This document shows positions 5,678 through 45,881 of a DNA stretch of 46,233 nt, piece by piece. Source of the DNA: Reclinomonas americana ATCC 50394. Lineage: Eukaryota. Location: positions 8,294 to 54,526 of the forward strand of contig PS015536.1 in the NCBI GenBank assembly GCA_048213135.1, given 5' to 3'. A model generated the notes under the pieces. That model had not been told where the DNA came from, searched no databases, and was given only the letters and a program-made list of their open reading frames with translations. Numbering within the stretch: the first letter of the stretch is position 1; the number at the start of each line of letters is the position of its first letter. A program made the position numbers and the translations under genes.

Positions 5678-6356
5678 NNNNNNNNNNNNNNNNNNNNNNN
5701 NNNNNNNNNNNNNNNNNNNNNNNNNNNNNNNNNNNNNNNNNNNNNNNNNNNNNNNNNNNNNNNNNNNNNNNNNNNNNNNNNNNNNNNNNNNNNNNNNNNN
5801 NNNNNNNNNNNNNNNNNNNNNNNNNNNNNNNNNNNNNNNNNNNNNNNNNNNNNNNNNNNNNNNNNNNNNNNNNNNNNNNNNNNNNNNNNNNNNNNNNNNN
5901 NNNNNNNNNNNNNNNNNNNNNNNNNNNNNNNNNNNNNNNNNNNNNNNNNNNNNNNNNNNNNNNNNNNNNNNNNNNNNNNNNNNNNNNNNNNNNNNNNNNN
6001 NNNNNNNNNNNNNNNNNNNNNNNNNNNNNNNNNNNNNNNNNNNNNNNNNNNNNNNNNNNNNNNNNNNNNNNNNNNNNNNNNNNNNNNNNNNNNNNNNNNN
6101 NNNNNNNNNNNNNNNNNNNNNNNNNNNNNNNNNNNNNNNNNNNNNNNNNNNNNNNNNNNNNNNNNNNNNNNNNNNNNNNNNNNNNNNNNNNNNNNNNNNN
6201 NNNNNNNNNNNNNNNNNNNNNNNNNNNNNNNNNNNNNNNNNNNNNNNNNNNNNNNNNNNNNNNNNNNNNNNNNNNNNNNNNNNNNNNNNNNNNNNNNNNN
6301 NNNNNNNNNNNNNNNNNNNNNNNNNNNNNNNNNNNNNNNNNNNNNNNNNNNNNNNN
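5678..6356. other. Assembly gap (N run)
   Basis: Ns. Confidence 1.
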
Positions 6357-9599: not shown

Positions 9600-9669
<70 letters not shown>

Positions 9670-16984: not shown

Positions 16985-17077
16985 CTCAACGGGGTAAGGG
17001 GATAGGAGGAGAAAAGAGTGCGTCCTGTGCGTCCCATCACTCACGCACGCACCGACCGACGCACGCACTCGCTCATC
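16985..17077. promoter_or_regulatory. Probable bidirectional promoter, IMP peptidase/NDUFV1 (93 bp)
   Basis: Head-to-head ATGs; inferred from geometry. Confidence 0.55.
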
Positions 17078-19710
17078 ATGCAACGAGCGGCCCGAGTCGC
17101 GCGTCGCTTCTACGGCGGCCTGGCTGACAAGGACCGCATCTTCACCAACTTGTTTGGAGAGCATCCGTATACGCTGGATGGAGCACTCAAGCGAGTTGCG
17201 TGAATGTGCAAGTGTGTGTGTGTGTGAGAGAGAGAGGGGAGAGAGAGAGCAGTGTGCAGTCGCCAGGTCGTGCTGTGTGTGTGAGAGAGAAACGAGTGCG
17301 TGTGTGTATACGTTGAGTTTTGCACTTTGGAGTTCAATTGCGCTTGCATATGCACACGCATTCAACACATCTGCTGTGTGCGATGAGACAGAGCACGCAC
17401 AGAGAGTGAACAAGTGTGTGCGTGAGAGTGAGAGCGAGGGAGGTGGAAAAGCAAGCGTTTCTCAGTGGACATGGCGCGCAATGTCTCACTCTCTCTTCTC
17501 TCTCTCTCTTTGGTGATTGTTTATAGGGTGACTGGTACCGCACCAAGGATCTGATCACGAAGGGCTCTGACTGGATCGTGAATGAGGTCAAGAAGAGTGG
17601 ATTGCGCGGTCGCGGAGGTGCAGGTTTCCCCTCGGGGCTGAAGTGGTCGTTTATGCCCAAGGTGTCCGATGGAAGGTGAGAGAACGAGGAGGGGAGAGTG
17701 GAACAGGGGTATCAGGTCAGCCTTTTCTCGTCATGCGTGATGATGATGGAGTGATGAGGGGGAGTGATGAAGGGCTTCTCGCCATATCTCTCCTTGTGGC
17801 CACTGTGCAGATGGCTCGTCCCTGCTTTCCTTTGCTCTCTGCCACCATTCTGCAGCGTCTTGCCTGCGCGATGTCATGACGTTCTTCTTCTTCTCCTGTC
17901 GTACGCGAACCCACCGCCCCGTCAGTGAGCGCATTTGTTTCCCTCTCTTTCTCACTTCCTCTCTCACACATTTGAAAAGCTTCATCGCTGTCACTCACTT
18001 GTTGTTCTCTCCCTCGTTTTCTCTCTTATTTCCCTCCCTTTCCCTTTCCCTCTCTCCTATCCCTCTCTCCTCTCCCTCTCCTCTCCCTCTCTCCTCTCCC
18101 TCTCCCTCTCCCTCTCCCTCTCCCTCTCCCTCTCCTCCTCCCTCTCCCTCTCCCTCCCCTCTCCCCCCTCTCTCCCTCTCCCTCCCGTTCCCTCACCCTC
18201 ACCCTCTCCCTCTCCCTCACTTCCCCTGCCAGGCCATCATACCTCGTCATCAATGCCGACGAGAGTGAGCCGGGCACGTGCAAGGATCGCGAGATTATGC
18301 GACACGATCCGCACAAGTTGGTCGAGGGCGCGCTGCTGGCCGGTGTGGGCATGCGTGCACGCGCAGGTAAATCACATCCTTTCCTCCCTCCCTCTCATAT
18401 CCCCTCTCTTCTCACACACTATCGCAGCGTACATTTACATTCGCGGCGAGTTCTACAACGAGGCGCTGAACCTGCAGCACGCCATCGACGAGGCCTACAA
18501 GGCGGGATTGATTGGTCGCAACGCCTGCGGCAGCGGCTACGACTACGATGTGTACCTCCACCGTGGTGCTGGTGCGTACATTTGTGGCGAGGAGACTGCG
18601 CTGCTGGAGTCACTCGAGGGCAAGCAGGTGCGTGCGAGCGTGCGCATGAAAGGAATGCCATAGAGTGCGATTCTCACTATGTTCTGTGGCTGCTGCGCAG
18701 GGCAAGCCGCGCCTGAAGCCACCGTTCCCAGCCAATGTCGGTCTGTACGGTTGCCCGAGCACTGTGACCAATGTGGAGACCATTGCCGTGGCGCCGACCA
18801 TTCTGCGTCGGTTTGTTTCTCGAGTCGAAGTTGTTACTACTGCTGCTGTGTGTATCACGCCCCAACACCTTCTCGTGTTGTCTGTCCAACAGTGGTGGTG
18901 ACTGGTTCGCCGCGTTCGGACGCAAGAACAACAGCGGCACCAAGCTGTTCTGCATCTCCGGCCACGTCAACAACCCATGCACTGTGGAGGGTACGTCCAT
19001 CTGTGTTTATGTGCCTTTGTTGCCACCGTAGGTGCTCATTCCCTCCATCTCGCAGAGGAAATGTCCATTCCTCTCCGCGAGCTCATCGAGAAACATGCCG
19101 GAGGTGTGCGCGGTGGCTGGGACAACCTTCTGGGCATCATCCCCGGTGGCTCTTCAGTACCAGTCCTGCCCAAGTCCATTTGCGACGATGTGCTGTTGCG
19201 TACAATATTCACGCGTTTATGTTGTGTGTCTCCTCTTCCTCCCGCTCTCCGCTCACCACCTCAATCTCACCAGGATGGACTTTGACGCCCTGAAGGCCGT
19301 CAACAGTGGCCTCGGCACCGCCGCCGTGATGGTCATGGACAAGTCGACCGACATTATCAAGGCCATTGCCCGTCTCTCCAAGTTCTACAAGCACGAGTCG
19401 TGCGGCCAATGCACACCGTGCCGCGAGGGCACCGGCTGGCTCATGCAGCTGATGGACCGCTTCGTCGAGGGCAACGCCGACGTGCGCGAGATCGACATGC
19501 TGGATGTTGCGCAGCGCTTGCAATTCGTCGCTCTGTGTGTGTTGTGCTCATCTCCGGTTGCTCTGCCAGGAAATCTCTCGTCAGATCGAGGGACACACCA
19601 TTTGCGCTCTGGGTGATGCTGCCGCATGGCCAGTGCAGGGTCTGATTCGTCACTTCCGCCCTGAGATGGAGGCGCGTGTGAAGAAGTTCCAGGCCGCCCA
19701 CCGCCGTTGA
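17078..19710 (+). CDS. NDUFV1: Mitochondrial complex I 51 kDa flavoprotein subunit, 9 exons
   Basis: [98 protein letters not shown] at 19708-19710. Confidence 0.98.
18060..18225. repeat. (TCCCTC)n polypyrimidine tract in NDUFV1 intron 2
   Basis: Direct read; the complementary strand is (GAGGGA)n. Confidence 0.9.
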
Positions 19711-20195: not shown

Positions 20196-23158
20196 CTAGC
20201 GTTGCCGCAGTGACGGCAGTGGGTCACTGTCGTGTGTTGTTGTCGTCGTTGTCGTGGATGTCGTTGTCATTGTCATCACTGCGGGTTCGTGGACAGTGGG
20301 CGACACGGCGCCTTCGTGATGCGCACGTTTTCGTGGCACCCACTCGTTGAGTTCTTGCTGTGCGAGTCGCTTCCGTGTCGACGCCTGCGCAGCAAAAAAG
20401 CATCGTGTCAAAGACTGTGTGTGCTCGAAGAACAGTGCGAAGAAGCATACCTCTTCCAAGGCAGTGGCAGGCAGTGTGCGTGCGACCACTGTCGACTGCA
20501 CGAGCGCGCTAAACTTGCCGCCCGTCGGTGGCGTGTCTGGCGCGTCGTCCACGCGATACATGCGCACGTGTGGCGATCCGGTGGCGAAACGGATGCAACC
20601 ACGCGTTCGCGGGCTGTGTTTCACCTGCTGCCGCCGCCGCTCGTCCTCGGTGACGCTCAGTACCACGCCGCGGTTCATCTCCGTGTTGAATTCGACCAGT
20701 GGCTCGTTTTCTGATGAAGAGAGACGACACAGAAGTGAGCAGGAGCCAGGAGATGCTTGGAAAACAAAGCGCACACCTCGTTCCATGCTGTCGAGAGCGT
20801 TGGGATCGACTGTGACAACTGGAGGAAGGCGACGAGTGAGACATGCGACAAAAAAACAGAGTGTGGCAGCAAATATTAACTGGTGCGGGGCGAGGTTGGC
20901 GACGGCAGTGGTGAGGTGTGCGGCGATGCAGTNNNNNNNNNNNNNNNNNNNNNNNNNNNNNNNNNNNNNNNNNNNNNNNNNNNNNNNNNNNNNNNNNNNN
21001 NNNNNNNNNNNNNNNNNNNNNNNNNNNNNNNNNNNNNNNNNNNNNNNNNNNNNNNNNNNNNNNNNNNNNNNNNNNNNNNNNNNNNNNNNNNNNNNNNNNN
21101 NNNNNNNNNNNNNNNNNNNNNNNNNNNNNNNNNNNNNNNNNNNNNNNNNNNNNNNNNNNNNNNNNNNNNNNNNNNNNNNNNNNNNNNNNNNNNNNNNNNN
21201 NNNNNNNNNNNNNNNNNNNNNNNNNNNNNNNNNNNNNNNNNNNNNNNNNNNNNNNNNNNNNNNNNNNNNNGCGCGCAGACGGCGACATTGACAGTGGAGG
21301 TTTCACCGGCGACGGCGCCCGCTGCCGCACCAGGCTGTCGAGGCCGAGAAAGTCGACCGCCACCACGGGCGAGCGGGGAGAAGCGTGCGGCGACCACCGC
21401 GGCGTGCCGCCCAGCGACGAAGAGTCGCGATCGGCGGGCGACGGAGCGGCCGACGACGCCGCACTGAGCGACTGCGGCGTGGAAATCACCATTGTCATCG
21501 TNNNNNNNNNNNNNNNNNNNNNNNNNNNNNNNNNNNNNNNNNNNNNNNNNNNNNNNNNNNNNNNNNNNNNNNNNNNNNNNNNNNNNNNNNNNNNNNNNNN
21601 NNNNNNNNNNNNNNNNNNNNNNNNNNNNNNNNNNNNNNNNNNNNNNNNNNNNNNNNNNNNNNNNNNNNNNNNNNNNNNNNNNNNNNNNNNNNNNNNNNNN
21701 NNNNNNNNNNNNNNNNNNNNNNNNNNNNNNNNNNNNNNNNNNNNNNNNNNNNNNNNNNNNNNNNNNNNNNNNNNNNNNNNNNNNNNNNNNNNNNNNNNNN
21801 NNNNNNNNNNNNNNNNNNNNNNNNNNNNNNNNNNNNNNNNNNNNNNNNNNNNNNNNNNNNNNNNNNNNNNNNNNNNNNNNNNNNNNNNNNNNNNNNNNNN
21901 NNNNNNNNNNNNNNNNNNNNNNNNNNNNNNNNNNNNNNNNNNNNNNNNNNNNNNNNNNNNNNNNNNNNNNNNNNNNNNNNNNNNNNNNNNNNNNNNNNNN
22001 NNNNNNNNNNNNNNNNNNNNNNNNNNNNNNNNNNNNNNNNNNNNNNNNNNNNNNNNNNNNNNNNNNNNNNNNNNNNNNNNNNNNNNNNNNNNNNNNNNNN
22101 NNNNNNNNNNNNNNNNNNNNNNNNNNNNNNNNNNNNNNNNNNNNNNNNNNNNNNNNNNNNNNNNNNNNNNNNNNNNNNNNNNNNNNNNNNNNNNNNNNNN
22201 NNNNNNNNNNNNNNNNNNNNNNNNNNNNNNNNNNNNNNNNNNNNNNNNNNNNNNNNNNNNNNNNNNNNNNNNNNNNNNNNNNNNNNNNNNNNNNNNNNNN
22301 NNNNNNNNNNNNNNNNNNNNNNNNNNNNNNNNNNNNNNNNNNNNNNNNNNNNNNNNNNNNNNNNNNNNNNNNNNNNNNNNNNNNNNNNNNNNNNNNNNNN
22401 NNNGCGTTTGCTGCTGCTACCGAGCCCGCCCCGCGCCTGTTGGGCACCAACGGGCAGTGGCGGCTGTCGCTTGGAATCGGCAACATACTGAAAAACGCGT
22501 GGCGAGGCGCCAAATCGAACGGTCGTCTTGTCTCGAAGAGGCATTGGAACGTGTGCAGGCAGTGGCGAGCCCTCCACCAGCGTGCCGTGTGCTGCACACA
22601 CACACCCACAGAGGCGAGTGTCAGCGCAAGGGGGGAGGCACTCAGTGGACGAGGAAAGGAGAGCGCACGCGCACCCGAGCCCAAATCCATGATATATGAG
22701 CCGTGCTGGGAGTGCATAATCACTGCGTGCAGGCGGGATACCGACATGTGGGCCTCGACGATCTGATGGGGAGGCGGAGGAGCAAGTGAGCACTCGCGTG
22801 TACATGCATGTGGCGTCCGCCGCCCGCGCGCAACTTGCACAGCCTCCGCCAGACGACCAATCAGATACAACGGCCTTGCACTGATCTCATACACTATTGC
22901 TTCTGCGGCCTCCTCTGGCGCAGCAAAGGGAGCAGCTCCCGTGTGTGTGGCATGCAGCACAGGGCGACTGCGCGATGCGGCACTGGGCACTGTGGCAGAA
23001 AGAGAGAGAGAGAGCATGTATGTGATTCACTGTATCGTATTATGCAGTGTACGCTGCGCCAACTCGGAAACGCAACGACAACACCATGCGGGTGGCACAA
23101 ACGATGGCAAGCCCGTCACACTGTCGGTGACCACCTTGCCTGCCTGCTGCCTCGACAT
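20196..23158 (-). CDS. PPP1R8: NIPP1 (nuclear inhibitor of PP1)-like FHA-domain protein; middle interrupted by two gaps
   Basis: N-terminal FVPPAW; FHA motifs IGR, HMSVSRLHA, MDLGSAHGT, VRFGASPR. C-terminal LVEFNTEMN and GGKFSALVQSTVV resemble NIPP1 LTEFNTAHN and GRFRNMVQTAVV. Confidence 0.72.
20933..21270. other. Assembly gap (N run)
   Basis: Ns. Confidence 1.
21502..22403. other. Assembly gap (N run)
   Basis: Ns. Confidence 1.
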
Positions 23159-23251: not shown

Positions 23252-26221
23252 ATGGGGCTTCCGGAGGAGATCACCAAGGTACTCAACGACCCCACCGGCG
23301 AGGCACTGAACGAGCGCGTCGAGTCGGTGTTTCGCGATGCCGACGTCGACCAGAGCGGCACGATTGATTACTCGGAGTTCAAGAAGGTGAGGAGGGGGAC
23401 GATGAGCAGATGCATGTGCCTCTCCCTTTCGCCAATGTGCATGCATGTGCGTGTGTGCGTGTGTGTTCGTGTCTTTGCGCCATGTGCACATTCACATCAC
23501 CAACCTGCACACACACTCACACTTTCACGCACGCAGCTGTATCGTGGCCTGCACTCCACACTGGAGCTTCCACGGCACTCGGTGTTGAGTGAGAAGCAGC
23601 TCAAGTCCAGTTGCGTGTGCTCTCACTCGTCTCTCTCACTCCACATTGAGACTGACGATTATTGCGCGCAGAGTTTGAGCAGCTGGATGCCGACAAGAGC
23701 GGGAGCATTGATGTGAATGAGTTCAGGTGAGAGAGAAGAGAGCGAGAGGAGGGGCAGAGATGATTCCGTGACTGACTGGTTGTTGTTGTCGCTTGTTTGC
23801 TGCTCTCCAGGCCATTGGTGAAGGAGGTGCGTGCACTGGGCTTGTGTTGCCTGCTTCCCGGCCAGTCACACTGACTCTTGTTGCAGTTCCTGGTGGACAT
23901 GCGTGACAAGTTCCAGCAGGTGGAGCACGAGATGAGTGACATGCAGGAGTGGTTTGCCGACAAGACAACGACTGTTGCGTGTCCGTCTTGTTGCGTCGCG
24001 TGTCTCCGGAGGCCTCACGACGATTGGTGTGTAGCAGCAAAGGAGGCAGACGAGATCGGCGGCCAAGTCGACCGACGAGCCGTCGTTGCCTCCGTCGCGG
24101 TTACCGGTGCGTCGCACTCGTCAGCAGGCCGAGGCGGTGTCAGCGTCGCAAACGTCGGAGGCCAGCGAGGATGCGTCCACCCCGCCGACTCGACAGACTC
24201 GGCGCAAATCAGCGGCGGCGGCGGCGGTGGAGGAACCGGCAGCGCCGGCGCGCAGCACGCGACGCAAGTCAGCAGCAGCTTCCTTGTCGACTGCCAGTCA
24301 GGAGGCGGAGGAGGAGGAGGAGGACGACGAGAAGCCGCAGTCGACCAGAAGCACTCGGCGCAAGTCGGTGGTCATTGTGTCGTCGTCGCAGGAGTCGGCG
24401 GCAGAAGATGCACCGACGAGCAGCAAGCGCGCTCGCGCTCGCCGTGCCTCGCAGGTGGCAGAGAACGCCGATGACGACGAGGGATCGGCGGCCGGCCTGT
24501 CATCGCAGGAGCCTGAGCCGGTGCCCGAGTCCACCAGCAAGCGCAGTCGCGGACGTCGCGTATCTGTGGTCCCCGACGACGAATCCGTGGCGGCCTCCTC
24601 GTCGCAGGAGCAGGAGGCTTCCGGCAAGCGGGGCAGTCGGGCGCGACGATCATCGGTGGCGGCAGCGGCCGTGTCGGAGGAAGCAACGCCAGCTGCGTCG
24701 TCACAGGAGGCGGAACCAAGCAGTGGCAAGAAGGCACGCGGCCGACGTGCTTCGGTGATTGCGGAGACGAATGACGCAGACATGGCACCGTCGTCGTCAC
24801 AAGAGCAGGAGGAGGAGAAGAAGAAGGAGGCGGAGAAGAGCAGTCAAACTGCCCGTGGCCGTCGTGCGTCAGTCTCGGAGACGGGAGAGAAGCACACGTC
24901 TGCGAAACACAGCCCGTCAATCACACCAGCACTGCCGCCACCCGCTAGGATGGAGGTGGACGACGATCACGAGGAAGAGGAGGAGGAGGAGGAGGTAGTC
25001 GTGAGTCAAAAGAGTAGCAAGGCCCTGCGACGGGTGTCGGCACCACCACTCAGGTCGAATGCTCCATCAACACCAGCGGCGGCGGCGGAGAAGGAGAGCA
25101 GTGCACGTTCGCGACGCAAGTCGATGGCGGCACCGACCGTGGCAGCGGAGCAGGCTGTGACACCGGCTCGTAAGAGCCGTGTGGCTGTCGACGACGATGT
25201 GGTGGTGTTCAGGAAGGCGCGATCGTCGGTGGCGGCGTCTGTACGAGAAGAGATGGAGGAGGACGATGAAGACGCGGAGACGGCGACTGATGTGGCGGAG
25301 ACTGATGACAGCGACTCGGATGATGATGATGAGGAGGAGGAGGAAGAGGAGGAGAAGGGCGAGCAGTCGAATGACGTGCAGATTATTCGTGTTGCGCCTC
25401 GTGACCCGTCTGCCACTCGACCGCTGGTGCTGCCGACCGACGGCGTGCTGCCACCTGCTCTGTTTGCACGGCTGTCGCTGCGGAGGCAGACTCTGGCTCG
25501 TGAGACGGCGCTGATTCCCCCGACAACTGCCGACGGTGCCAGTGCGACGTTCACCAGCACCGTGACGCACTCGGCCACGCTGACGGGCAGCATCGATACC
25601 GACGCGGTGATGAAGAAGAGCGTGTTTGAGCCGGACGCGTTGCGGAAGCAGCAGGAACGCGCTGCTCGTGCCGAGAAGGAGAAGAGCCAGAAGACCAAGC
25701 ACTTTCCCGGTCGACTGGTTCCCAAGGCCAACGAGCAACCCAAGGCGGTACGTTCACACTACAACATCATCGGCACAGCTCTTTCCATTCACTGCAGTCT
25801 GCTAAACTCATTTCCATGCACACTCACACACATGCAGGAGCGCAAAGCGCGCTGGGAAGACTTCGAGCCGCACCCGATGACACCCGAGCTGCAGCGTGAT
25901 CTGCGGCTCATCGCCATGCGCCAGTTCCTCTCCCCGGATCGCTTCTACAAAAAGACCGAGTGGAAGGTCCGCAAGTTGCCGAAGCGGGTGCAGCTGGGCG
26001 AGATTGTGGCCACGCCGCGGAATGTGCTGGGCGAAGGCGGCGGCGAGCGGCGGCGCGGACGCAAGCGCACCATTCTGGAGGAGCTCGTCGGCGACGACTC
26101 CACCCGCCGCTACACCAAGCGTCGCTACGTGGAGATACAGCGCGAGCGCAGTGCCATTGGCACCAAGCGCGCCTCCCGTCGACCAGCCTCACGGAAACTG
26201 AGCAAGGGGGGCAAGAAATGA
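23252..26221 (+). CDS. FCF2: EF-hand pair + long Ser/Glu/Arg low-complexity region + C-terminal Fcf2 (DNTTIP2/Fcf2) pre-rRNA processing domain
   Basis: EF loops DVDQSGTIDYSE and DADKSGSIDVNE. The intron starting at 23974 joins in frame to the 24086-26221 ORF. Fcf2 motif MTPELQRDLRLIAMRQFLSPDRFYKK...PKRVQLG...KRTILEELVGD...YTKRRYVEIQ. Confidence 0.78.
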
Positions 26222-27085: not shown

Positions 27086-30000
27086 ATGACAGACTTTCGC
27101 GAGAAGCTTTTTGAGGAGTTCCTCAACCGGCACATGGCGCCGGAGCTGCGGTGAGGTCCCAATTGAAGTCAACAGTGTGTCGACAAAAGTGACTCATTTG
27201 GTTTGATCTTCGTACAGCGACGTGATTCACGGCGGCGCACTGGACCATCTCATGCACGAGGTGTTTGAGGACCTGCAGCACCGCACTATCTGGGTCGAGC
27301 ACGATGAGAGCATGCTTGTGCGACATTTCATGACACCCAAGGTTAACGTTTGTCGAAAAAACAAATAATGCATGCACACTTTGGGCGAGTGCAAACCCCT
27401 TTCTTTTTCCTTTTTTCGTTGTACACAGATTGACAACGCTCGTGAGACGGCACTCTTCCGCTCCTCGGGACTGGCCGAGTATCTGCAAGCGGAGCCCGGC
27501 CACACGCGCAAGGCGCCTGAGCGATCATTCCTCACTTTGATTAAGGACTTTAACAAGCATCGAGTGGAGCGCATCCTCACAGCCATGCTGGACAACGAGG
27601 AGTTGCATGCCACATGCTGCACCTTTCTCTGTGTCTCCTCACGCACTCACGAGTTCTCCTTGCCGCGCGCGCATGCAGGATTGTCAACTGGGACTACTCG
27701 TTCGGCCCGTATGCCGGTTTGTTCGTCGCCAATTTGTTTTTTGCTGTCGTTCTCCAACTCACGACTGCCTTGCTCCTCTGCAGGTGCATTTACCGATGAG
27801 ATGAACAGTCGCCTGCGAGACCTTCGTGACGCGGAGGAGATGCAGGCGTACATTGGGCAGAACCCGACCACCGCCATTGACATGTTCCGTGACGCGTGGG
27901 ATCGCCTGCGCTTGCAGGAGACGGACGAGTTGCGTAATGCAACGACACGATTAGCAGCAGCTACAGTGCTCACCCTTCTCGCCTCACAGCATGCGTTTCG
28001 ACGAGGCGCACGCTCGCGCGTCGTGGACTCGCAAGTACCGGACCACGTGCTGCGTGGAGCGACTGCCCTCCGAGTACTCGTCCATGGTGCGCTTCTTCTC
28101 GTTCTCTTGGTTTCCACCCCTCTGATCATGAACTAATTCGGCGAGGTGACGACACAGCGCCTGGTCGGAGCTCTGCGTGCTGCCGTCGCGCCGCGTTTGG
28201 TGCCAGTGGAGCGAGTGGTGGTGACGACGGGTGCACGTACGCAGCAGACTAACGTGCAGCCGCGCGTTTTCATGACTGTCCGTCCCGTTGACGACGACGA
28301 GGACAGCGTGGATCGCGCCGAGGAGGAGCTGTGCGAGCTTGCGCATGAGATCTCCACCTCGTGGACGATTTTCGAGGGCCAGCAGCGGTACGTCTTCCTC
28401 TGAATTCTGCTTTCACACTGTACCCTCGTTCTTCTCATCGTTCTCCACGCGCAGGCTGCTGAAGGTCACCATGAACCTGCCCGACATGTTCACGTGGGTG
28501 GGTGAGTACATGCAAGAGGTCCGTCGTGCACTGGCCGCACAGCAGCCACGTGCGCGTGCACGAACGGCGGCTCGAACGGTGGTCGCCGGCAGCAGTGGCC
28601 AGGGAGGTGCATCCGCCTCGGCCCCTGCAGCCACCATGCCGGCCAGTTCCGCGCCTTCCGATCGCACCGCTCGCGTTCCAGCCGTCGCAGCTGCGGTGCT
28701 GCCGGTGTCGCTGGACGACCACAGCCCGATGGTGTTCACCTTTGGACCGGCCCAGGAGCACGAGTCGAGTGGCTCGCTGTCGCTTTCGGACGCGGTCTCA
28801 GACGATGCGCAGCCGTCGGCCGCTGATCACGATCGTGCTCTCACAGACACGCTGTCGCCGATCGTGAAGCAGCTGCTCGACGCCAACATGGCGAAGCTGC
28901 AGAGGGCGCCGAAGACCGTATTGTGCGGTGGGCGTCTGGAGGTGTGCGGCACTGGCCACAAGAAGAAGGACCGCGAGTTTGTCCTTGGCCAGGGCAGCTA
29001 CGGCTCGGTGTACTTGGGCTACTGGCAGCCGGGTCTGCGCGTGGAGACCAAGGTGCCGGTGGCCGTGAAGCTCATCTCGAAGGACTGCGGCATGTCCCTT
29101 AAGCACGTCGATGAGGAGATCCGGCAGAGCCAGGCGGTGCCGCGTGGCCGCTCGGTGGAGATCTACGCCTCATTCGGCGCCGACGACGAGCAGTTGGTGG
29201 AGCTGTGGGACGACTGCCACGTGATTGTGCAGAAGCTGTGCGCCATCAACTTGGACACGCTGATCACCGAGCACACGGCGAAGATTGGTCTCACGGCGCG
29301 CCGAGCTCTCATGGCCGAGGTCTTGGACGCCGTCACCGCCCTCCATTCCCTGGAGCCGGCGGTTGCCCACCGTGACATCAAGCCCAACGTTGCGTGACAG
29401 CACGATGTGACTCGCTTTTCTCTGTTCGACCTGACTGACGGTGGTGTGTAACTCGTTTCGATGTGCAGAACATCCTGGTCGACCTGCAGCTGAACATGTA
29501 CGTGCACGACAATGAGCTGCTGAGCACATCGCTTCACTTATACTCATCCTCTTGTTTTTCACGCTGCAGCAAGCTGTGTGATTTTGGCATGGCACGAACG
29601 GTGGCCGGGCACGATCGCTCCACGATGCACACCATGTGGCAAGCTGGCCAGTCGGTGTTCCAGGCGCCCGAGGACATCGAGGGCGATCATCGTCGAGCCA
29701 CGTGGTCGGTGCAGAAGGAGTCGGATGTGTTCAGCCTCGGCGCCGTCCTCTTCTTCATCTGGACCGGCGGTCTGCATCCGCTGGCGTGGACAGAGGAGCG
29801 CGATGGCACACTGCAGTGCGTACCAATTTTTCCGTTCGCAGACGCAGAACCTCTCCCCGTTCCTCACTTCACTCTCTCTCTCTCGCGCACACACAGGGGT
29901 CAGCCACCGAGTTTCCTCGCCGATCGAGCACAGTTTACGCGCCGCATGTACGCCTTCCAGAACGACTCGGACACATTGCGCGTCGCTCACCGGTATTGGG

Positions 30001-31832
30001 AGAATGCGCTGAACAACGTGCCACTGTTCATGCTGCTGCGAGAGATGCTGCGACCCAAGCCGGTCGATCGGTGACTACTACCTCACACCCGCCTCGTCTC
30101 GCGCCACTTCTCGCTGATTTTTTGCCACGCAGCCTCACCACGACGCAGATCAAGCAGCACCCGTTCTTCTTGGACGCCTCCGGCCGACGCATGATGATTC
30201 AGCGCCTCGAGGAGAGCGGCAAGACGTTTGACAGCAAGGGTTTGTCGTGGCTTTCGACTCCATCGTGAGCGTTCTTCTTCTTCTTCTCTTTTTTCCGCTC
30301 ACCCGTTGTGTATGCAGCACGACGCATGCTGGAGGGGCTGCAGCCGAGCATTTCGGTGGGACGCATCGATCCGCAGCACTGGCGAGACACCCTGTGCAGC
30401 GCACTGCGAGTGCACGATTCCGATCGTTCCCGAGTGCTGACATCGTTGCGGTGCGACACCATGACGGCGAACGCGTGGGGCATGGTAAGTGGGGCAAGCG
30501 TGCACAGCGATCCCGCGCACAGCGGCACTCACGAATTCGAGTTGTGCAGGTCAAGTTCATGCGCAACGTCATGACACACGCCAGTGATCCCGACTTTTCG
30601 CACGACTTGCTGGATCGCTTCTGCCACTTTGTCATGCCGAGTGGCGAGGTGCGGCACGTGGCCGATGTGGAGCAGTTCTTCCACGAGCACCCGCTGTTTT
30701 CGTGGATCCTGCCGGAGGTGTGGAGCACCACGCAGGTGGATCACATTCGAAGTGTGCGCAACATGCTGGAGAACATTCCCAACTTTGACGCCATCTTCCG
30801 CGGCGACGCCGAGTCGGTGATGCGAGCCGTGGAGCAATTCCTGGCCAAGTCCATGAAGCGCACTGTGGACGGTCGCAGCACGCCAGAGTTGGAGGTGCCC
30901 GAGGTAAGGAACTCACACGTCTCGCGTTGTACGGGATCCCGAAGCTCACCTTGTTCGAAATGAATGCAGTTGAGTCCGCAGTCTCGGCCTCGCGATCGCA
31001 CACCGCCGGCGTCCCCACCACTGCCTCCCTCACGACCGCCGGCTTCAGCGCCAGCCACACTGCCGCTGCCTGCCTCGGTGCAACCGCTGACCCCAGCCGC
31101 TGTCACTGCTGCTGCCAGCGCTTCGACTGCCTCACCGACAAGCGGTTCCTCGCGACGCCGCAATCGCCAGAATCGGCAGGCTGCCGCTGCGGCTGCCGCC
31201 GCTGCTTCAGCTGCTGACTCCACCGCTGACGCTGGCTCCGCTTCCTCTTCCGGCTCACGATCGCCCACGCGCACTCCTCAAGCAGGTGCTCGAGCTCCGC
31301 CCGAGTACCGAGCTGTGGCTGCGGTGAGTGCATTCTGCGCGGCAGTGGTGAGTAGTGTTTCTGACCACAACTCACACCTGTCGGTGCAGGCGAGTGCCGA
31401 GTGGAAGGCCGCACCCGCTCCGTCGCGCTCCTCATCCGTCAAGCTGCCGCCGGACTTTGCTGGTGCGTATGTAGCGCGATGAATGTCGGTCTTGAGACAC
31501 GCGCCTTCTCACTTCTTGATCGGCGCACAGAGCTCCCTGCACGCAACGAGCTCCACGCTTCGTTCACTAAGGACAACGGCGGCCCGTATCCTGGCCGTGT
31601 TCTCAACTGCAACGCCAAGCTGGGCACCGCCCACATTGAGTGGGAGGGTCAGGGCAGCAGCAAGCCGCTGGTGTATATGTACAAGACCTCGTTGCAGGAG
31701 CCGGCGCGTTTTGCCGACATGATCAAGCCCGGTGCGCGTGTGACCATGTGGATCAAGAACAACCCGAAGATGATGCCGGGCAAGCCGATCCAGCCGTACG
31801 CCTACGCTGTCATTCTGCGCACGCAGCAGTAG
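27086..31832 (+). CDS. Soluble IRE1/RNase L-like protein: unknown N-domain, putative RRM, Ser/Thr kinase, KEN ribonuclease, putative cold-shock (OB) domain; about 17 exons
   Basis: Kinase LGQGSYGSVY, VAVK, HRDIKPNNIL, DFGMAR, APE, SDVFSLG, IRE1-type TGGLHP, HPFF. KEN motif VKFMRNVMTH (30550-30579). No signal peptide or TM helix. TAG at 31830-31832. Confidence 0.8.
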
Positions 31833-31911: not shown

Positions 31912-33775
31912 ATGCGGAGGCCGCGCTCGTCGCCTCTCGCGACTGTGCTCCTCCTCTTCCTCTGCTTCTGTTTCCTCCTTTCACCCTCGCCCTCCAGTGC
32001 CGACGCACTTGGTGACACTCGCGACTGCGATGCATCGTTTCCGTGGTCGCTCTTCACGCGCGCCAGCTGGCACCTGCTGCGTGGCGAGTCTCTGTCGTCG
32101 TCCGCCTCTCACCGCCCACCACACCATGGTGCAATGGCGCGCATCTCTGCTCCCTTTCGATTCCGTCGCCAGTGCCTCGCTGCATTCGAGTCGTGGTTGT
32201 CGCTCTCGGAGGTGTACATGACGCTGCAGTCGCCACGCAGCGGGCCCACACAGGTGCTGCATGCCGATGCCCCACTGGCAGCCGCACCACCTGGCGTCAT
32301 TCGACGACACCCTGCATTCGATCGGGTAAGGAGGCGCTTGATCAACAGAGACAAGTGATCGACTCACTCACTCGCACACCGCTGCGCACACAGGTGTCGG
32401 TGCTGTACGACGCCCCAGTGCGATTACCGACGAGTGCACGCGGCAGCACTGTCGGTCCACCAATGCTCATGCGATCGCCGACGCTCATGGAGCACCAGCT
32501 CACCGACCCGTACCCATCGTACTCGATCGTGGTGGAGAATGCGGTGTGTGTTCTTGCCCTCTTCCTCTGCACGAACTGCGCGTGACCGTGACGTGCCATG
32601 TGCAGCTCGTGACCCCCGACGATGTGGTGTTCACCAAGGAGCACGTGTTACTGGCGCGTTCGTGTCTGCCGCGCGTGCTCGAGGCGCCCCGCACGTGGGA
32701 GGCCACTGATGAGGTGCTGTTGGCCGACGCCGTGCTGCCGCTGCTGCAAATTTTCTCCGACGCACTGTTCCACATCATCATCGAGTCCCTCACGCGCCTC
32801 ATGCAAGTGTGGGACGAGGTGTACCCGGATCGCTGCATTGTGGTGCTCACACGACGGAGCACGTACGGGTCGCAGCTGACGCTGGATCTGTTTGAGGCTG
32901 TCGGCATTTATGGGGATCGAGTTGCGCTTGTGTGGTGCGGGCTTTTTTGCACTTGGAGTCCCCCTTCCCTAATTGCCCACAGATCGTTCTCGATCCGCCG
33001 CCGGTCATGGCACGCAAAGTGTACTTTGTGGCGGGTACCTACTGCACACAGTCGCAGCCGTCGCTGTTGCACGAGATTGCTCGTGTTTTCAACGTGCTGC
33101 ACGGCGACATGGTGCGCGAGGTCATGCGTGAATACTGGAACTGTTGCGTCCAACCGTGCTGGTGCTGGTCAGCATGTGTACTCGCTGCTGAATCGCACAC
33201 GTGCAGCACGGCGTTCTGTGCAACTGCGGACGCCGACGCCGAGTGGGCGGCCCCTGCGGCGTGTGGTGGTGATTGAGCGCAAGGGCGAGCGTGAGTTGGT
33301 GCAACACGACGAGGCGAGTGCTGTGCTTCTTTTCTCCATGCCTCCATCCTCCGTTGTGGCAAAGCTCACGTGGTGGCATATGTAGATTATCGCCATGATG
33401 CAACGCGATTTCCCGCACTTTGAGGTGGTGTTGTTGTCGCGCAACGCCACCGCCATGCAGGGAATCGTCGAGGTGGCCATGGCCGACATTCTGTTTGGCG
33501 CACACGGTGCGGGGTTCTCCTATCGCGCCTTTATCCGTGGTCGTCCGTGCGCCCACATCGAAGTCATGTACCACGCCGGCTTCGCGTGGGGCATGACGTG
33601 GAATCCCGGTCTGGTGTTGATGGCCGCCGCGCAGGGCTGCAAGACGTTTGTGCACTTTGACGAAAAGGGCACGCAGATCAGCGCGTTGGATGCACCAGTA
33701 GCCGATATCCGCTGGCTTCTGCAGCAGGCCGACGACTGGTTGGCCACGCAGGATGTGCGCAGGCCTTTCTCGTAG
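31912..33775 (+). CDS. Glycosyltransferase family 61 (DUF563)-like protein, paralog 1
   Basis: Signal/anchor segment, FHIIIESLTRL, VVIERKGERELVQ, ADILFGAHGAG...IEV. Confidence 0.8.
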
Positions 33776-33961
33776 ACTAGAAGGAGACTGAGAGCGACGA
33801 TTGCTGTCGATTTCCTCCTTCTCAGCCTGCTGTTGTTTGCGGCTACATGCGCAGAGATGGCCAGTGTCAGATCCCGGGCAGGCGACTGTGTTATTGAGTC
33901 GCCAAGTGAAAACAAAGGCCAGCACTTGACTGACGCGCAATTTCGTTTTCTTTTTCCGACG

Positions 33962-36325
33962 ATGCACACGAGGAGAGCGCTTCTTGTCGCCCTTCTCGCC
34001 GCGGTGGTGTGTGTGACCTCGTTTGTTACTCGATCTGCCCATCTCTCACTCTGCTGTGCTGCGTCAGGTGGTGTGCACATGCATGCTGGCATCTTCCGCC
34101 TCGATCGTCGGTGAGTCTGCGTGTGTGCATTCTGCGTGCGCACACACGCACACGCTCATCATCGTCTGTCTACAGATCAGAGCAGTGGAGACGCTGCTCT
34201 CGGCGTCTCTGCATCGCATCTCGACATCACTGCGGTGCGTTGTCTCTCGTCGGAGAGGAACTGCATGCATGTGAGACTCACGCAAACTCTGTTGCAGGTC
34301 CACGCATCGACGTCGCCTGAGGTGTTGCTGCAACACACCATCTGCCTCTTGCTGGATACAGTTTATCTCTCACACACCTCTCTTGCGCAGCACGAGGCCT
34401 GCCGACGCAACTTCCCGTGGTCACTCTTCTCGCCCGCCAGCTGGATCATGATGCGAGGCAGCAAGGCAGTCGACGACTCCTCGGGCCAGCCGCGACCACT
34501 GCACGTCGGTGCGTCGGCGCTGGTGATCCCGCCGTTCCAGATCCGCGCGGAATGTGCGGCCGCCTTCGAGTCGTGGCTGGCGCTGTCGCCCACGCTGCTG
34601 ACGTTGGCTCGGGAGCCGCCACTGAAGCTGCGAGCCGAAGAGCCCTTTGCTGTCATGTCGACGGCCAACAATCCGCGCTACGTGGTGCGTCGACACCCGC
34701 AGTTCGACATGGTAAGCACCCGATCTCTTCGCGTCTTTTCCTCTTTTTGCGTCGCCTGAGTGCCTGTGCATGATCAGCATCCTGTGCAACACGAACTGCC
34801 GGTGCGCCTGCCGCACTTGCAGCAGCAGGATATTGGTCCGCCCATGATCATGCGCCCGGGCAACCTGATGGAGCACCGACGGTCGCTGTACGTGCCGTGG
34901 GGCTCGATGGTGGTGGAGAATGCTGTTGCGTGAAATGTGCATGTTGGATCATCACTGCGCCCCTGCTGCTCACTTGTGCGCCTCGAGCGCAGCTCATCTC
35001 CCCACACGACGTTGTCTTCACCGACGATGCTGCCATGGAGGCGCGCTCGTGTCGCACCGCGGACGCCAACCCGCAGCCAATGCCGATCGAGTGGTCGGTG
35101 AACCAGGCCGCGCTGCTGTTGGACGCGGCGCTGCCGCTCATGCAGCTCTTCTCCCATCGCCTCTATCACATCATTGTCGAGTCGCTGCCGAGACTCATTG
35201 CGGTGCGTGGCGCGAAAAATACAAGTTGGGAGCGAGATGAGAGACTGCTCACCTCGCCTCGCACGCGTGCATGCAGGTGTGGGACGAGGTGTATGCCGAT
35301 CGCAGCATCTTCATCTTGGCCAGTGCCGTCGAGCACGGCGACCAGGTGGTGGTCGACACGTTTGCCGCGGTCGGCATTCCACGCGAGCGAGTTGCGTGCC
35401 GTGTGATTTACGTAGCTGCACGCGCTGCTGTCACTTCGGTCGCTGGTCTCACGATGGCGCAGTTGATACTGAGTCCGCCACCGGTCATGGCGCGCAAGGT
35501 GTACCTGGTGTCTGGTGTGTTTTGCACGCATCCGCATGCGACCGTGATACAAGGCATTCGTCGCGTGTTTGAGACCCTGCATGGTGACATGGTGCGAGCG
35601 GCTCTGCGGCAGTTGTGGGAACGTTGCGTGGGCAGCCGCGCTTTCTCTCAGTCTGTCACGCCCACACCTGCGCAGCGAATCGCCGACTGTGGGTTCGTGA
35701 CGGGCCGCTGACGCGTCGTCGCGCCGTGCGCCGCATGGCCGTGTTCCAGCGCACGAAAACTCGTGCCCTGGTCGAGCACAACGAGGTGCGCATGACCGCA
35801 TGCAGTCGATCGCTGTGTTTCGTTGCTGACGACGGCGGGCGCGCAGATTATGCAGATGCTGCAGACCGAATTCCCCCACTTCGAGGTGCAAGTGATCCCC
35901 GACAACGCCACTGTCGCGCAGGGCATTCTGGCGGTGGCCAACGCTCATGTTTTGTTCGGGCCGCACGGTGCCGGCTTTGCGTTTGCGGCGTTTGGCATTG
36001 GCCGGCCGTGCGCTCACGTGGAGGTCACGTACGGTGGCAACGACAGAGGCATGTCGTGGAATCCGTGCCAGTTGGACGTGACGGCAGCGCATGTTGCGTG
36101 GAGAGGAGAAAGAAGAGGTGGGAACGCGAGTGTCACTGCTCACCGCCACAGCAGGGATGCAAACAATTCTTCCTCTTTGACGAGTTCTCCAGCCAAATGC
36201 ACCCGACAATATCGGCGCCGGTGAACGACGTGCGGTGGATTATGCAGCAGGTGGACGAGTGGCTCGAGTCGCAAATGCCCCTAACAGTACCCGACGACGA
36301 CGACGGAGACGGAGTATTTGGTTGA
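33962..36325 (+). CDS. GT61-like protein, paralog 2
   Basis: Signal peptide over small 5' exons, FPWSLF, YHIIVESLPRL, VLFGPHGAG...VEV. Shares intron positions with paralogs 1 and 3. Confidence 0.78.
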
Positions 36326-36358
36326 GTGAAATCGTCCTGCTACTTGAACGCGACACGA

Positions 36359-38289
36359 ATGCAGAGCGCGTCTCGCTTCCTTTTCCGCCTCGCATTCCTC
36401 TGCTGCCTCCTCCTCCTCTCCCACACCCCACTCTCCTCCTCCGCCACACACGACAACGACGCCTGCGAAGACAACTTTCCGTGGTCACTCTTCGCCCCAC
36501 GCTCATGGAGAATGGTGGTCGGCAGCGACGAGCTGCTCGACGATAGCATGCGTCCTTTACACAAGGGCGCCATGGCACACATTAGCACGCCCTTCCACCC
36601 ACGTCTGTCGCGTTGCCGATCGCCCTGGTTGACAATCACTCGTGAGGCAATGAGTCTGCGTGAACCGCGCGTCGGGCCCGCCCAGGTGCTGCAAGAGTAT
36701 GAGCCGTATGATATGATGGTGTCGACGGGGAATCCGCGGTGTACTCTGCGTCGACATCCGCGTTTTGATCGAGTTGAGTGAGGAGGGCATGGAGATGATG
36801 ATGATTGCCATTAGGCAGCTCAATTCCGTTCTCTTTCTGCAGCAACGTGTGCAGTACGCGATGCCTGTGCGACCGCCGCATGTGCGACCGGAGGGAGTTG
36901 GCTCGCCGTTTGATCCGCGTCCGGGTGGCATGATGGAGCACCGCTTTTCGAACCACATGCCATCGCACTCGATTGTTGTCGAGAATGCTGTTGCGTGTGT
37001 GCTCTTGGTTCTGTGCAATGCATCTTGAGCTCACTGGGAAAGAGAGCAGGTGGTGGCGCACAGTGGATTGGTGTTCACGCCCGAGTACATGCTGGCGCCG
37101 ATCTCCTGCGAGTCCTTCAACCCCGATTTCCCGATGCAGTGGGAGACCACCACCAGTGCCGTGCTGGTGGATGCCGTGTTGCCGCTGCTGCAGGCATTCT
37201 CCGGTGGCCTGTATCACACGGTGGGGGAGTCTCTGCCGCGGCTCATGCAGGTGTGGGACGAGGTGTATCCCGATCGGAGCATCGTGATTGCCACCACCAG
37301 CAGCGACTATGGAGCGCAAATGATGTATGATTTGTACGCGGCCGTGGGCATTCCGGCGGAGAGGGTGAGTGCGCGCCCTGTATGGGTGCAGAGAGAGTAT
37401 AGATAAGTAAGTGGTGACTGTGCGCTGTGTGTGTGTGTACGTGCAGATCATCCTCGATCCGCCGGCGATCCTGGCCAAGAAAGTCTACTTCGTTGGTGGT
37501 GTGTACTGCACCGATGCACAACGGTCGCTGGTGCACGAGATGAATCGTGTCTTTGACTTGCTGCACGGCGACATGGTGCGATCGGCTCTGCGCGAGCTGT
37601 GGCAACGTTGCGCGTGCATGAGCATTCATCTTTCATTGTCTTGTGTATCAACCACCACTTCGCTCGCTACAGCCAAGCGCTCAGTGCGGTTGCGTACCGA
37701 TACCCCGTCTGGACGTGCTCTCCGACGCGTTGTCGTCATCAGCCGGGAAGGCCGGCGAGTCTTGGCTCGTGAGAGCGAGGTGAGTCTCTGTTGTCCTTTT
37801 TCTGCTATCATCTGTTCAGGTCCGTTGACGATTGCGGCGTGCAGGTCGTGGAGGCCATGCGACGCGAGTTTCCACATTTCGACGTACATGTGCTGCCGGC
37901 CAGCACATCAGTCGCCGCTGGCATCCTTGCAGTGCGTCACGCGCACATTCTGTTCGGCGCACACGGAGCTGGCTTTGCGTACGCTGCTTTCGGTGCCACT
38001 CGCCCGTGTGCCCACGTGGAGATCACGTACGGCCGTCGCCTCCCCTACTTTATGAAGTGGAACCCGTGCCAGATGATCCTGTCGGCGCCACACGTTCGTC
38101 GCCATCGCTTTTGCGGAGAAAATCCGACGCAGTCGCCACTGACTTGTTGGTCTGCAGGGTTGCAAGCCGTTCTTCCTGTTCGACGACGACGCGGAACAGC
38201 ATGCACCGGCACTCAAGGCCCCATGGGACGATATTCGATGGCTCCTGCAACAGGCAGACGAGTGGCTGGACTCGCAGCGATTGCCGTGA
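36359..38289 (+). CDS. GT61-like protein, paralog 3
   Basis: Signal peptide MQSASRFLFRLAFLCCLLLLS, FPWSLF, YHTVGESLPRL, ILFGAHGAG...VEI. Confidence 0.8.
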
Positions 38290-44300: not shown

Positions 44301-45881
44301 CTTACAAGGCACGCACGCAGTTTGGACACGCTGGCCGCCTTGCACACAAACAAGGTGACCCACCGCGACATTCGGCCGTCGCACATTTTCCTGGCGGGCT
44401 CCGAGCGCGAGCCGGAAGTCAAGCTGCTGCACGTGGGTCTTCGCGCCGCACTCACTGGTCTGGAGGCCACCGAGTTCAACACGGTAGGCGACCATGATGC
44501 CCGCCGTCACCGTGTTCCCAATGCGCACCTCATTCGTGTGTGCCGGCGCAGATTTTTGGCGCTCCAGAGCTGCTGCTCTGCCGCATGATGTACGACAGCG
44601 ATATTTGGGCGGCCGGCATGGTCATTCTGTCAATGTTGCAGAGTCGGGGTCAGCGTCAGGAGCCGCTGTTGTTGGGCGACCGCACCAGCATCTTCCGTGC
44701 CATGTTCCAGGTGCGTGGGACACTTTTCGGTCGCTTCGTGTGTCGGTGCGGTTTCTGATTTTCTGTCTGTGGTGCAGCTGCTGTCGGTGTCGGGCGATGA
44801 AGCGTATCACTTTTCAAAGAACTGCGGACTCACCGACGAGGATGCCGACAAGTATGCGCAAGTCGCCGACGCGGAATCGGCCAAGTCCGCTCACCGCCTG
44901 CGTGACGTGCGTGTGTCGGAACAGTGTCGGACGCGACCCTTCACGCGTTGACCCTCTCTATCGGTACAGGTCATTGAGGGCGCATCGGCACGCGGTATCG
45001 ACGTGGTGCTCATGATGCTAGCGTTCTTGCCGGAGAAGCGGTGAGCTCGCGCAGCATTTGACGTCGCAACGTGGTGAATGGTCTCTAAAAATGTTGATGC
45101 TCTCGTCAGTGCGACGCTGCACGAAGCCATGCAGCACTCGTTCTTCTCGCAGTTCGATCTGGTACCCAAGACGCCGGCACTCCCACCACGCGCGGCTGTG
45201 GCGACCACATTCAGTTGCGTGCAAGTGTCTCTTTCGCTTTGCAGTCGTCACGCTGAAAGAAGGATTTGCAGCTCGCGCTGTGCCTGCCGTGGCCGTCGCT
45301 GCCCCTCCACCGCCCACTGCTGCCACTGCTGCTGCTGCTGCACCTGCGGTTGCCGTGGCCGCCCCACCAGCTGCTGCTGCTGCTGCTGCTGCTGCCTATC
45401 CGTCTCCTCCACCCGCCCCGCCCGCTGTGGCAGTCGCGGCGCAGCCACCACCACCACCACCTGCTGTTGCTGTGGCATCACCGCCAGTGGCTNNNNNNNN
45501 NNNNNNNNNNNNGTCGCATCTCCACCACCACCGGCCGTGGCAGTTGCCGCGAAACCTGCAGTCGCCGTCGCCAAGCCACCGTCCCCACCACCGCCGCCAG
45601 CAACGGTCGAAGAACCGTCTGAGAAGGCCGCCGCCGTCGCCGCCGCCGTGGAGGAGCCGACTGCTGAGACCGCATCGACTGAGGAGACCTCGATTCCCGC
45701 TGCTGCTGCTGCTGATGCTGATGCAGCGGTTGGCGGTGCAGAGGAAGGCGAGGAGGAGGCCGAAGCCGAGGCCGAGGAGGGTGCAGAGGAAGAGGGCGAT
45801 GCATCCGGATCAAAGCCGAGCGCGCCGTCTGCTGCAGCATCGGGTGGCAAGAAAAAGCGCGGCAAGAACAACCGCCGCTGA
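41394..45881 (+). CDS. Putatively N-myristoylated WD40 + coiled-coil + pseudokinase + Pro/Ala-rich and acidic tail protein
   Basis: MGQKQS start; WD motifs VAVGFGDGSVTVFE, ILTGGTDGLVRLWS, SDGLLHGWN; kinase fold HRDIRPSHIF, GAPEL, DIWAAG, KRATLHEAMQHSFF. A small gap lies at 45493-45512. Confidence 0.7.
45493..45512. other. Assembly gap (N run)
   Basis: Ns. Confidence 1.

Follow-up and report, generated by a model that had tools for sequence, protein, structure and literature searches.

Investigation of the 5' splice sites (donors) in a 46,233-base stretch of contig PS015536.1 of Reclinomonas americana ATCC 50394, referred to here as the window and numbered from its first base, revealed two forms of intron start that are coupled to the last base of the preceding exon (position -1): an unshifted form (U), GTNNG, which mostly follows G, and a shifted form (S), GTTNNG, typically GTTGCGT, which mostly follows T, A or C. 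A real, selected coupling between donor form and exon end very probably exists, and this tight coupling is not explained by ordinary pairing with the U1 small nuclear RNA (snRNA); that S donors are read one position out of register has about an even chance of being right. The splice junctions were deduced from reading frame, paralog alignment and homology, and both selection and splicing at the GT-AG borders used here are to be taken as suggested by the sequence.

The coupling is seen at homologous introns of three tandem paralogs (G1, G2 and G3), tentatively labelled GT61-like, which lie on the forward strand at positions 31912-38289 and have products that are 47-51% identical:

31912-33775, forward strand: G1, GT61-like paralog 1, 511 amino acids and a stop, 5 introns, spliced translation uninterrupted
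34301-36325, forward strand: G2, GT61-like paralog 2, the part aligning with G1 and G3, 7 introns, translates cleanly over 1569 nt with one terminal stop
36359-38289, forward strand: G3, GT61-like paralog 3, 507 amino acids and a stop, 6 introns, spliced translation uninterrupted

When the three products were aligned with MAFFT, introns A to F fell at identical alignment columns and phases, and the junction columns have no gaps. The positions are column 146 (A, phase 0), 196 (B, phase 0), 304 (C, phase 0), 357 (D, phase 1), 394 (E, phase 0) and 477 (F, phase 0); intron F is present in G2 and G3 only, there being no intron at this position in G1, and one intron is confined to G2 at column 266. 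The 18 curated introns are 53-82 nt long, 17 of them GT-AG and one GC-AG, and are as follows (a slash outside brackets marks the exon-intron border in donors):

32326-32393, forward strand: intron A of G1, CGG/GTAAGG, unshifted, phase 0
34712-34777, forward strand: intron A of G2, ATG/GTAAGC, unshifted, phase 0
36773-36842, forward strand: intron A of G3, CGA/GTTGAGT, shifted, phase 0
32544-32605, forward strand: intron B of G1, GCG/GTGTGT, unshifted, phase 0
34925-34992, forward strand: intron B of G2, GCT/GTTGCGT, shifted, phase 0
36990-37049, forward strand: intron B of G3, GCT/GTTGCGT, shifted, phase 0
35203-35276, forward strand: intron of G2 only, GCG/GTGCGT, unshifted, phase 0
32921-32982, forward strand: intron C of G1, CGA/GTTGCGC, shifted, phase 0
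35391-35462, forward strand: intron C of G2, CGA/GTTGCGT, shifted, phase 0
37365-37446, forward strand: intron C of G3, AGG/GTGAGT, unshifted, phase 0
33143-33206, forward strand: intron D of G1, ACT/GTTGCGT, shifted, phase 1
35623-35675, forward strand: intron D of G2, AAC/GTTGCGT, shifted, phase 1
37607-37672, forward strand: intron D of G3, AAC/GTTGCGC, shifted, phase 1
33314-33385, forward strand: intron E of G1, GAG/GCGAGT, GC-AG, unshifted, phase 0
35786-35846, forward strand: intron E of G2, GAG/GTGCGC, unshifted, phase 0
37780-37844, forward strand: intron E of G3, GAG/GTGAGT, unshifted, phase 0
36093-36154, forward strand: intron F of G2, CAT/GTTGCGT, shifted, phase 0
38094-38157, forward strand: intron F of G3, CAC/GTTCGT, unshifted GTNNGT after a non-G exon end

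Positions A, B and C each carry both donor classes, and the accompanying change at -1 is synonymous (CGG and CGA at A, GCG and GCT at B, CGA and AGG at C). Among the 18 introns, G at -1 is followed by eight unshifted and no shifted donors, and A, C or T by one unshifted and nine shifted donors (Fisher p=4.1e-4), all nine of the latter being GTTG[C/A]G. A preliminary description of the paralogs had quoted 13 of these donors, and each coordinate and its flanks stand in the sequence exactly as written there; the G2-only intron, intron F of G2 and the GC donor of G1 were absent from it and fit the same rule. Its statement that intron E is unshifted after G in all three genes is borne out, the donor of G1 being GC, and CAC/GTTCGT at 38094, which it had named as the one exception, is the sole exception among the 18. 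Since synonymous sites are, in our estimation, expected to be saturated at 47-51% protein identity, the mixed positions A, B and C are more aptly regarded as draws from an equilibrium under tight coupling than as a rare event seen three times.

The gene NDUFV1, encoding the 51-kDa subunit of complex I, is an independent test, as its borders were placed by tblastn with a homolog:

17033-19710, forward strand: NDUFV1, 8 introns, clean spliced translation, Pfam PF01512 and PF10589
17676 AAG/GTGAGA, 18367 CAG/GTAAAT, 18628 CAG/GTGCGT, 18811 TCG/GTTTGT and 18991 AGG/GTACGT, forward strand: unshifted donors of NDUFV1, all with G at -1
17195-17526, forward strand: intron 1 of NDUFV1, CGA/GTTGCGT, shifted, 332 nt, the homolog residues ...ALKR/GDWY... 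being contiguous across it
19195-19273, forward strand: intron 7 of NDUFV1, GCT/GTTGCGT, shifted, phase 2, the junction giving ...DDVL/MDFDAL... as in the homolog
19506-19569, forward strand: intron 8 of NDUFV1, GAT/GTTGCGC, shifted, phase 0, with the acceptor fixed by homology (EISRQIEGH)

The rule is kept in eight of eight introns, the five donors after G being unshifted and the three after a non-G base (A, T, T) being GTTGCG[T/C]. Taken together, the 26 introns of the paralogs and NDUFV1 give p=2.7e-6, and all 18 curated paralog introns and 8 NDUFV1 introns have GT-AG or GC-AG ends and restore the reading frame.

For the window as a whole, each donor was assigned to a class from its intron sequence only, U being GTNNG and S being GTTNNG with a base other than G at +5, and introns were predicted with a purpose-written gene finder (intron length limit 220 nt) whose donor score is taken from intron positions +3 to +8 only. 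The exon side is never scored, so the gene finder cannot create an association with -1. It returned 121 introns in 13 gene models, 39 of the 121 donors being S. G stands at -1 before 62 of the 70 U donors and before 6 of the 39 S donors (p=1.8e-14), and the covariation proposed from the paralogs thus holds in this larger set. Outside the GT61 block (99 predicted introns), U donors follow G in 53 cases and another base in 7, and S donors follow G in 5 and another base in 24 (p=5.5e-11). The association survives restriction to introns needed for the reading frame (p 1e-9) or to those with strong 3' signals (p 4e-8). That the class tracks the base at -1 and not the ancestry of the intron, as had been put forward, is therefore upheld by the mixed positions A, B and C, by NDUFV1 and by the introns outside the GT61 block.

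The motif itself gives the same picture, with no gene model needed. The window contains 37 copies of GTTGCGT, compared with 10.75 +/- 3.1 in shuffled sequences, a 3.4-fold excess (none of 100 shuffles reaches 37), and it is preceded by G at only one of the 37 sites, at 37689, inside an exon that is conserved in all three paralogs; GGTTGCG is unenriched (6 against 10.1 expected). Regarding the six predicted S donors with G at -1, the one at 37689 is a false call, that at 40094 is weak, and that at 2192 on the reverse strand has an equally framed AAG/GTTTGT 27 nt upstream. These three and the donor at 3209 (reverse strand) were dropped as doubtful from the S set used for the heptamer and information, RNAduplex, branch and codon-position analyses (n=35); three of the four had G at -1, so that dropping them favours the coupling, the undropped count being the 6 of 39 given above.

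The two donor forms differ in where their sequence is constrained. Among the 35 S donors the heptamers are GTTGCGT (23), GTTGCGC (4), GTTGAGT (2), GTTTCGT (2) and others (4), while the 70 U donors are loose, with GTGCGT (14), GTGAGT (10), GTTTGT (6), GTACGT (4), GTGTGT (4) and others. Information at -1 amounts to 1.3 bits in U and 0.2 bits in S, and that at the variable intron positions to 0.2-0.6 bits in U, with little at +3 and +4, against 1.1-1.6 bits at +4, +5 and +7 in S; exon-end and intron-side consensus are thus anti-correlated, as in two-class 5' splice sites. The two variable positions (+4 and +5 in S) are GC in 28 and GA in 2 S donors, against 17 and 17 in U donors with G at -1 (p=2e-4). 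The shifted donor had been described as an insertion of T at +3; the extra T is present, and the S form has its own rigid consensus and is not simply a U donor plus T. Compared with the expectation from codon position, T and A are over-represented at the exon ends before S donors (T 16 against 6.4, A 11 against 5.9) and G and C under-represented (G 3 against 12.3, C 5 against 10.5), so that the tie to a non-G exon end proposed earlier is correct with the qualification that T and A are preferred. The donor repertoire of the window as a whole is unusual. As a separate observation, GTTTGT, the third commonest U donor (6 of 70), stands mostly as AAG/ or GAG/GTTTGTGTG, and canonical GTAAGT is rare.

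Beyond the first heptamer the introns of the two classes are alike. S introns hold about 0 bits from +8 to +30, and the mean shared fraction of 6-mers is 0.0194 between S introns, 0.0195 between U introns and 0.0198 between the classes. The branch motif CTCAC/CTGAC/CTCAT scores best in both, at a median distance of 19 nt in U (n=70) and 20 nt in S (n=35), and the CAG acceptor, the median length of 67 and the G+C content are alike. There is no phase bias between the classes (phases 0, 1 and 2: 37, 19 and 14 in U; 19, 11 and 9 in S). The same branch, acceptor, length and G+C content point to one spliceosome for both forms, and the shared 3' signals together with the lack of family resemblance argue that S introns are ordinary U2-type (major-spliceosome) introns with a different first heptamer and not a repeat family. 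Regarding the other side of the intron, the downstream exon starts with G after 27 of 70 U introns and 5 of 35 S introns, with p=0.013 in what was one of several comparisons made; S introns are flanked by G-poor exon ends on both sides.

A mechanism that could link these features is an offset register of the guide. The ordinary U2-type introns of this GC-rich, intron-rich eukaryote have two donor forms: U, G/GTNNGT, would rely on G as the last exon base, and S, with W or H before the border and GTTGCGT after it, goes with exons ending in T, A or C and is marked by an extra U after GU and a nearly fixed GCGU. A guide that reads G(-1)G(+1)U(+2)..G(+5)U(+6) at U donors would read G(+1)U(+2)U(+3)..G(+6)U(+7) at S donors, one position over; either the intronic G at +1 would fill the slot of the missing exonic G, or U at +3 would be bulged out, and the cut would still fall before the single GU. 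Where the exon does not end in G, the exon-side contact would be lost, a usable site then needing both the extra U and a near-perfect intron side, and following synonymous drift at the last exon base selection would keep or replace the donor form to match. By sequence logic, the single motif G-[G/U]-U-N-N-G-U fits both forms, with the cut before the first GU.

Precedents for such registers are found in human 5' splice sites, where shifted (+1) and +2/+3 bulge registers of U1 have been established experimentally in the work of Roca, Krainer and co-workers and of Tan et al. 2016 (PMC4856993). Like those human sites, S donors start with GUU, have the G-U one position further in, are cleaved at GU and do without a G at the exon end. 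The validated non-canonical registers account for 1.5% of 201,541 human sites, with a +2/+3 bulge predicted for 68 (PMC4856993), against 39 of 121 predicted introns with S donors here. The human alternative-register sites, as described there, pair well with canonical U1, which GUUGCGU does not, and they have no rigid species-wide heptamer, unlike S donors.

Several observations weigh against the coupling or against its explanation by an offset register. All data come from one 46-kb window. Three real-looking S-like donors follow G (CAG/GTTCCGC at 9849, CTG/GTTACGC at 15341 and, on the reverse strand, CTG/GTTCCGT at 1971), none of them with the GTTGCG core, and eight U donors follow a non-G base, five of these with CGT at +4 to +6. 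The gene finder is not free of errors: in the GT61 block, all 18 curated donors were recovered, together with one false intron (37689) and three putative ones in the 5' region of G2, and in NDUFV1 it found five of eight donors exactly, missed the 332- and 557-nt introns and misplaced one. Regarding the register, pairing with the 5' end of canonical U1 (AUACUUACCUG) as calculated with RNAduplex has a mean of -1.5 kcal/mol for S donors and -7.2 for U donors, and only 3 of 35 S donors fold in the full +1 register with the canonical U1 11-mer, though the U1 of the source organism may differ. The canonical hexamer at U1 positions 4-9 ranks 3169th of 4096 for S donors. Canonical pairing would favour GUUGAGU or GUUAAGU, against the 28 to 2 preference for GC over GA; G at -1, which offset models expect to be neutral or helpful, is depleted before S donors; and T, the commonest S base at -1, pairs with nothing in U1. 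Neither a shift nor a bulge predicts the preference for C at +5, the preference for T or A at -1 or the shortage of G there. The preliminary description had argued for an active compensatory constraint, and this stands statistically, through the depletion of G at -1 before S donors, and does not stand energetically, as the donors are not compensated under canonical U1. Its interpretation overall is supported, and simple compensation by U1 pairing is not demonstrated.

Among the other explanations, the one that survives best, and which is nonetheless rather improbable, involves no U1 offset. In it the two forms would be an extreme local case of the general two-class donors, read at the level of U5 loop 1, the U6 ACAGA box or LUC7 proteins, with GUUGCGU as a protein- or U6-defined signal on the intron side. 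The anti-correlation of exon-side and intron-side information seen here fits this, such an anti-correlation of donor strength is documented as a general phenomenon of eukaryotic 5' splice sites (PMC9803359; PMC11842720), including the 'left-handed/right-handed' sites of LUC7 proteins (Kenny et al., 2025, PMC11842720), and the weak pairing of S donors with canonical U1 leaves room for another reader. As in those sites, so far as they are described in these sources, donors of the window lean either on the exon end (..G/GU) or on the intron side. However, the known classes keep equal spacing and the intron-side class is //GURAG, while the S class has an extra nucleotide (U), a C in place of the expected A and another sequence that hardly varies. 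At -1 the classes separate in an almost all-or-none way here, unlike in known two-class sites. GUUGCGU has no apparent complementarity to the U6 ACAGAGA box or U5 loop 1 in a comparison by eye, and the displacement of the G-U by one position, from +5/+6 to +6/+7, is what an offset predicts.

Slightly less probable still is a retuned or second U1-like guide whose 5' end reads ...ACGCA[C/A]C... and not ACUUACC, for which GUUGCGU would be a near-perfect target; in the version with two guides, G at -1 would act as an anti-determinant separating the classes. In a scan of 4096 guides, CGCACC is best for U donors (-9.2, with -6.6 for S), and for S donors the top guides are CGCAGC (-10.3) and CGCAAC (-10.2), so that, in silico, a hypothetical CGCACC or CGCAAC guide at positions 4-9 would suit both classes, and the marked preference of S donors for G at +4 and for C at +5 suggests G:C pairs. 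Lineage-specific 5' ends of U1 are described for Entamoeba (ACAAAC with GUUUGU) and Mastigamoeba (ACGUAC with GUACGU) (10.1101/2022.06.08.495308), and the U1 of kinetoplastids reads AACUCACCUGCA (PMC11613528). The window resembles these lineages in having a donor consensus unmatched by canonical U1; as reported, each of them has one donor form and one guide, whereas here two forms coexist and interconvert at homologous introns. Against a changed guide, a standard U1 is found in Thecamonas, which prefers C at +4, and in Mamiellales, which have GYGCGY donors (10.1101/2022.06.08.495308). A GC-rich donor consensus does not therefore imply a changed U1, which is what keeps the probability of this explanation low. 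U donors moreover accept GA as often as GC, and T at -1 has no pairing partner that would explain it. The fullest statement of the idea would be that the 5' splice-site code of the major spliceosome has split into two nearly orthogonal classes, that a U1-type guide, either retuned or dedicated (5' ...ACGCA[A/C]C...), reads about a third of introns (W/GUUGCGU) out of register by one position, and that the last exon base is the switch, with G as anti-determinant and a change of class needing a synonymous exon change and a one-base intron change; it is unlikely to the same degree.

It is very improbable that the pattern is an artefact of annotation or of chance, in the form of wrong junctions or of a small sample that seems ordered. 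In its favour, the junctions were deduced from sequence, the gene finder is imperfect and the data cover one window; against it, twelve S-type junctions are fixed at the residue level by paralogs or by a conserved homolog, other border pairs break the frame or are non-GT-AG, p ranges from 4e-4 to 2e-14 across three partly independent sets, and the count of the motif alone is free of gene models.

Least probable of all is that S introns are an introner or transposon family that ends in GTTGCGT and was inserted after non-G bases, an explanation which the rigid 7-nt start in about a third of introns and the narrow length distribution would favour, introner families being known for many introns with a conserved end and a narrow length range, and which is largely refuted, as the preliminary description had argued, by the absence of similarity from +8 onwards and of any 6-mer excess among S introns, by lengths, 3' signals and G+C content shared with U introns, and by the occurrence of both forms at the same codon and phase at three positions of old paralogs.

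Three further candidates were rejected. U12-type introns have the donor consensus RTATCCTT and the branch TCCTTAAC near the 3' end; S introns are like them in having a second rigid donor consensus that is independent of a G at the exon end, and unlike them in that the donors are not RTATCCTT and the branch is the same CTCAC/CTGAC, about 20 nt from CAG, as in the U introns. Cleavage after the first intronic G (G/TTGCG) would add one base and throw the gene out of frame with those paralogs whose donor at that codon is of the U form. A G-to-T substitution at +1 that slides the border predicts that -1 in S resembles -2 in U, which is not the case, T being found at 16 of 39 and 9 of 70 of these positions, respectively.

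In the usual account, a single U1 5' end recognises donors through a single degenerate consensus, and offset registers, at about 1.5% of sites in humans, count as a rare curiosity. In the window, a fixed heptamer that looks offset forms one of the main classes, with the last exon base as the switch, and offset or two-class donors of this extent and sharpness are unusual. No description of a GTTGCGT donor class was found in the literature searched, which excluded any genome paper of the source organism, and we know of no report of a preference for T or A at -1 in human alternative-register sites. If the pattern held genome-wide, it would provide a system, natural and present in many copies, in which to study how cleavage is positioned when the guide is out of register, show how introns sit at exon ends that cannot be G, and make a sharp prediction about the U1 gene or genes of the source organism; gene finders trained on a single donor matrix would then put roughly one in three donors of this genome in the wrong place.

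Regarding the paralogs themselves, the GT61 label is weakly supported: PF04577 is matched by the homologous exon of all three (best E 9.5e-6 with Pfam, single exons scanned), that of G3 (37845-38093) having E 1.7e-4 and 22.3 bits against the curated cut-off of 27, below which single exons stay. Of the named Atlas clusters GT61 lies nearest, at 0.87, which is a lead only. The last exon of G1 has no relatives among longer proteins, the GT61-like paralogs have no sequence match in the PDB at E<=1, and 535 pattern matches for GT61-like genes in metagenome contigs include none that was confirmed. The 5' end of G2 has two candidate models, starting either at the ATG at 33962, with an in-frame intron, or at an in-frame Met at about 34265:

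34111-34299, forward strand: putative 5' intron of G2, TCG/GTGAGT ... TTGCAG, 189 nt, in frame with the ATG at 33962

This candidate intron was left out of the curated counts. The exon with the upstream ATG carries a good hydrophobic anchor, and the region homologous to the signal anchor of G1 and G3 (...ICLLLDTVYLSHTSL...) lies downstream of the 189-nt intron. The stop of G2 and the start of G3 are 34 nt apart (36325-36359). The GC-AG intron of G1 at 33314-33385 corresponds to GT-AG introns in both other paralogs, and an alternative GT 9 nt downstream of its donor would add three residues that are not present in G2 or G3; further putative GC donors are proposed by the gene finder at 41507 and, on the reverse strand, at 6731.

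In NDUFV1, the first in-frame Met of the homologous region is at about 17078. Two of its introns are long, at 332 nt (17195-17526) and 557 nt (17676-18232) against the window median of 67 nt, and the latter is filled by a long CT-rich (CTCTCC-type) microsatellite. In a search with an NDUFV1 exon, which returned 8000 matches, the best eukaryotic ones, including Naegleria and Willaertia, are 81-84% identical, the same as alpha-proteobacteria.

The window is gene-dense eukaryotic DNA with a G+C content of about 60% and many short introns. Five runs of N, 2714 bases in total (4341-5115, 5678-6356, 20933-21270, 21502-22403 and 45493-45512), mark scaffold gaps, and apparent low-GC stretches in the composition profile are due to them. 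RF00012 is the sole Rfam family at gathering score in the window, where no U1 was detected by Rfam either at gathering score or at E<=1; it identifies a U3 small nucleolar RNA gene on the forward strand at 1040-1242 (56.9 bits, E 5.8e-10, full-length model match). Spacers between genes are very short along the row of forward-strand genes from 8.4 to 45 kb, which includes the following regions, with borders from the gene finder used here only:

8384-13655, forward strand: gene region
13744-16350, forward strand: gene region
23252-26221, forward strand: gene region
27086-31832, forward strand: gene region
38.5-41.2 kb, forward strand: gene region

Pfam searches of single open reading frames in these five regions detected a PAN2-like deadenylase (UCH_1, PAN2_N), an LRR_6 protein, an Fcf2 protein, a protein kinase and a TPR protein. 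The reading frame containing Fcf2 has just 5 distant matches, with 32-36% identity, and the gene of this protein has an open exon of 728 codons.

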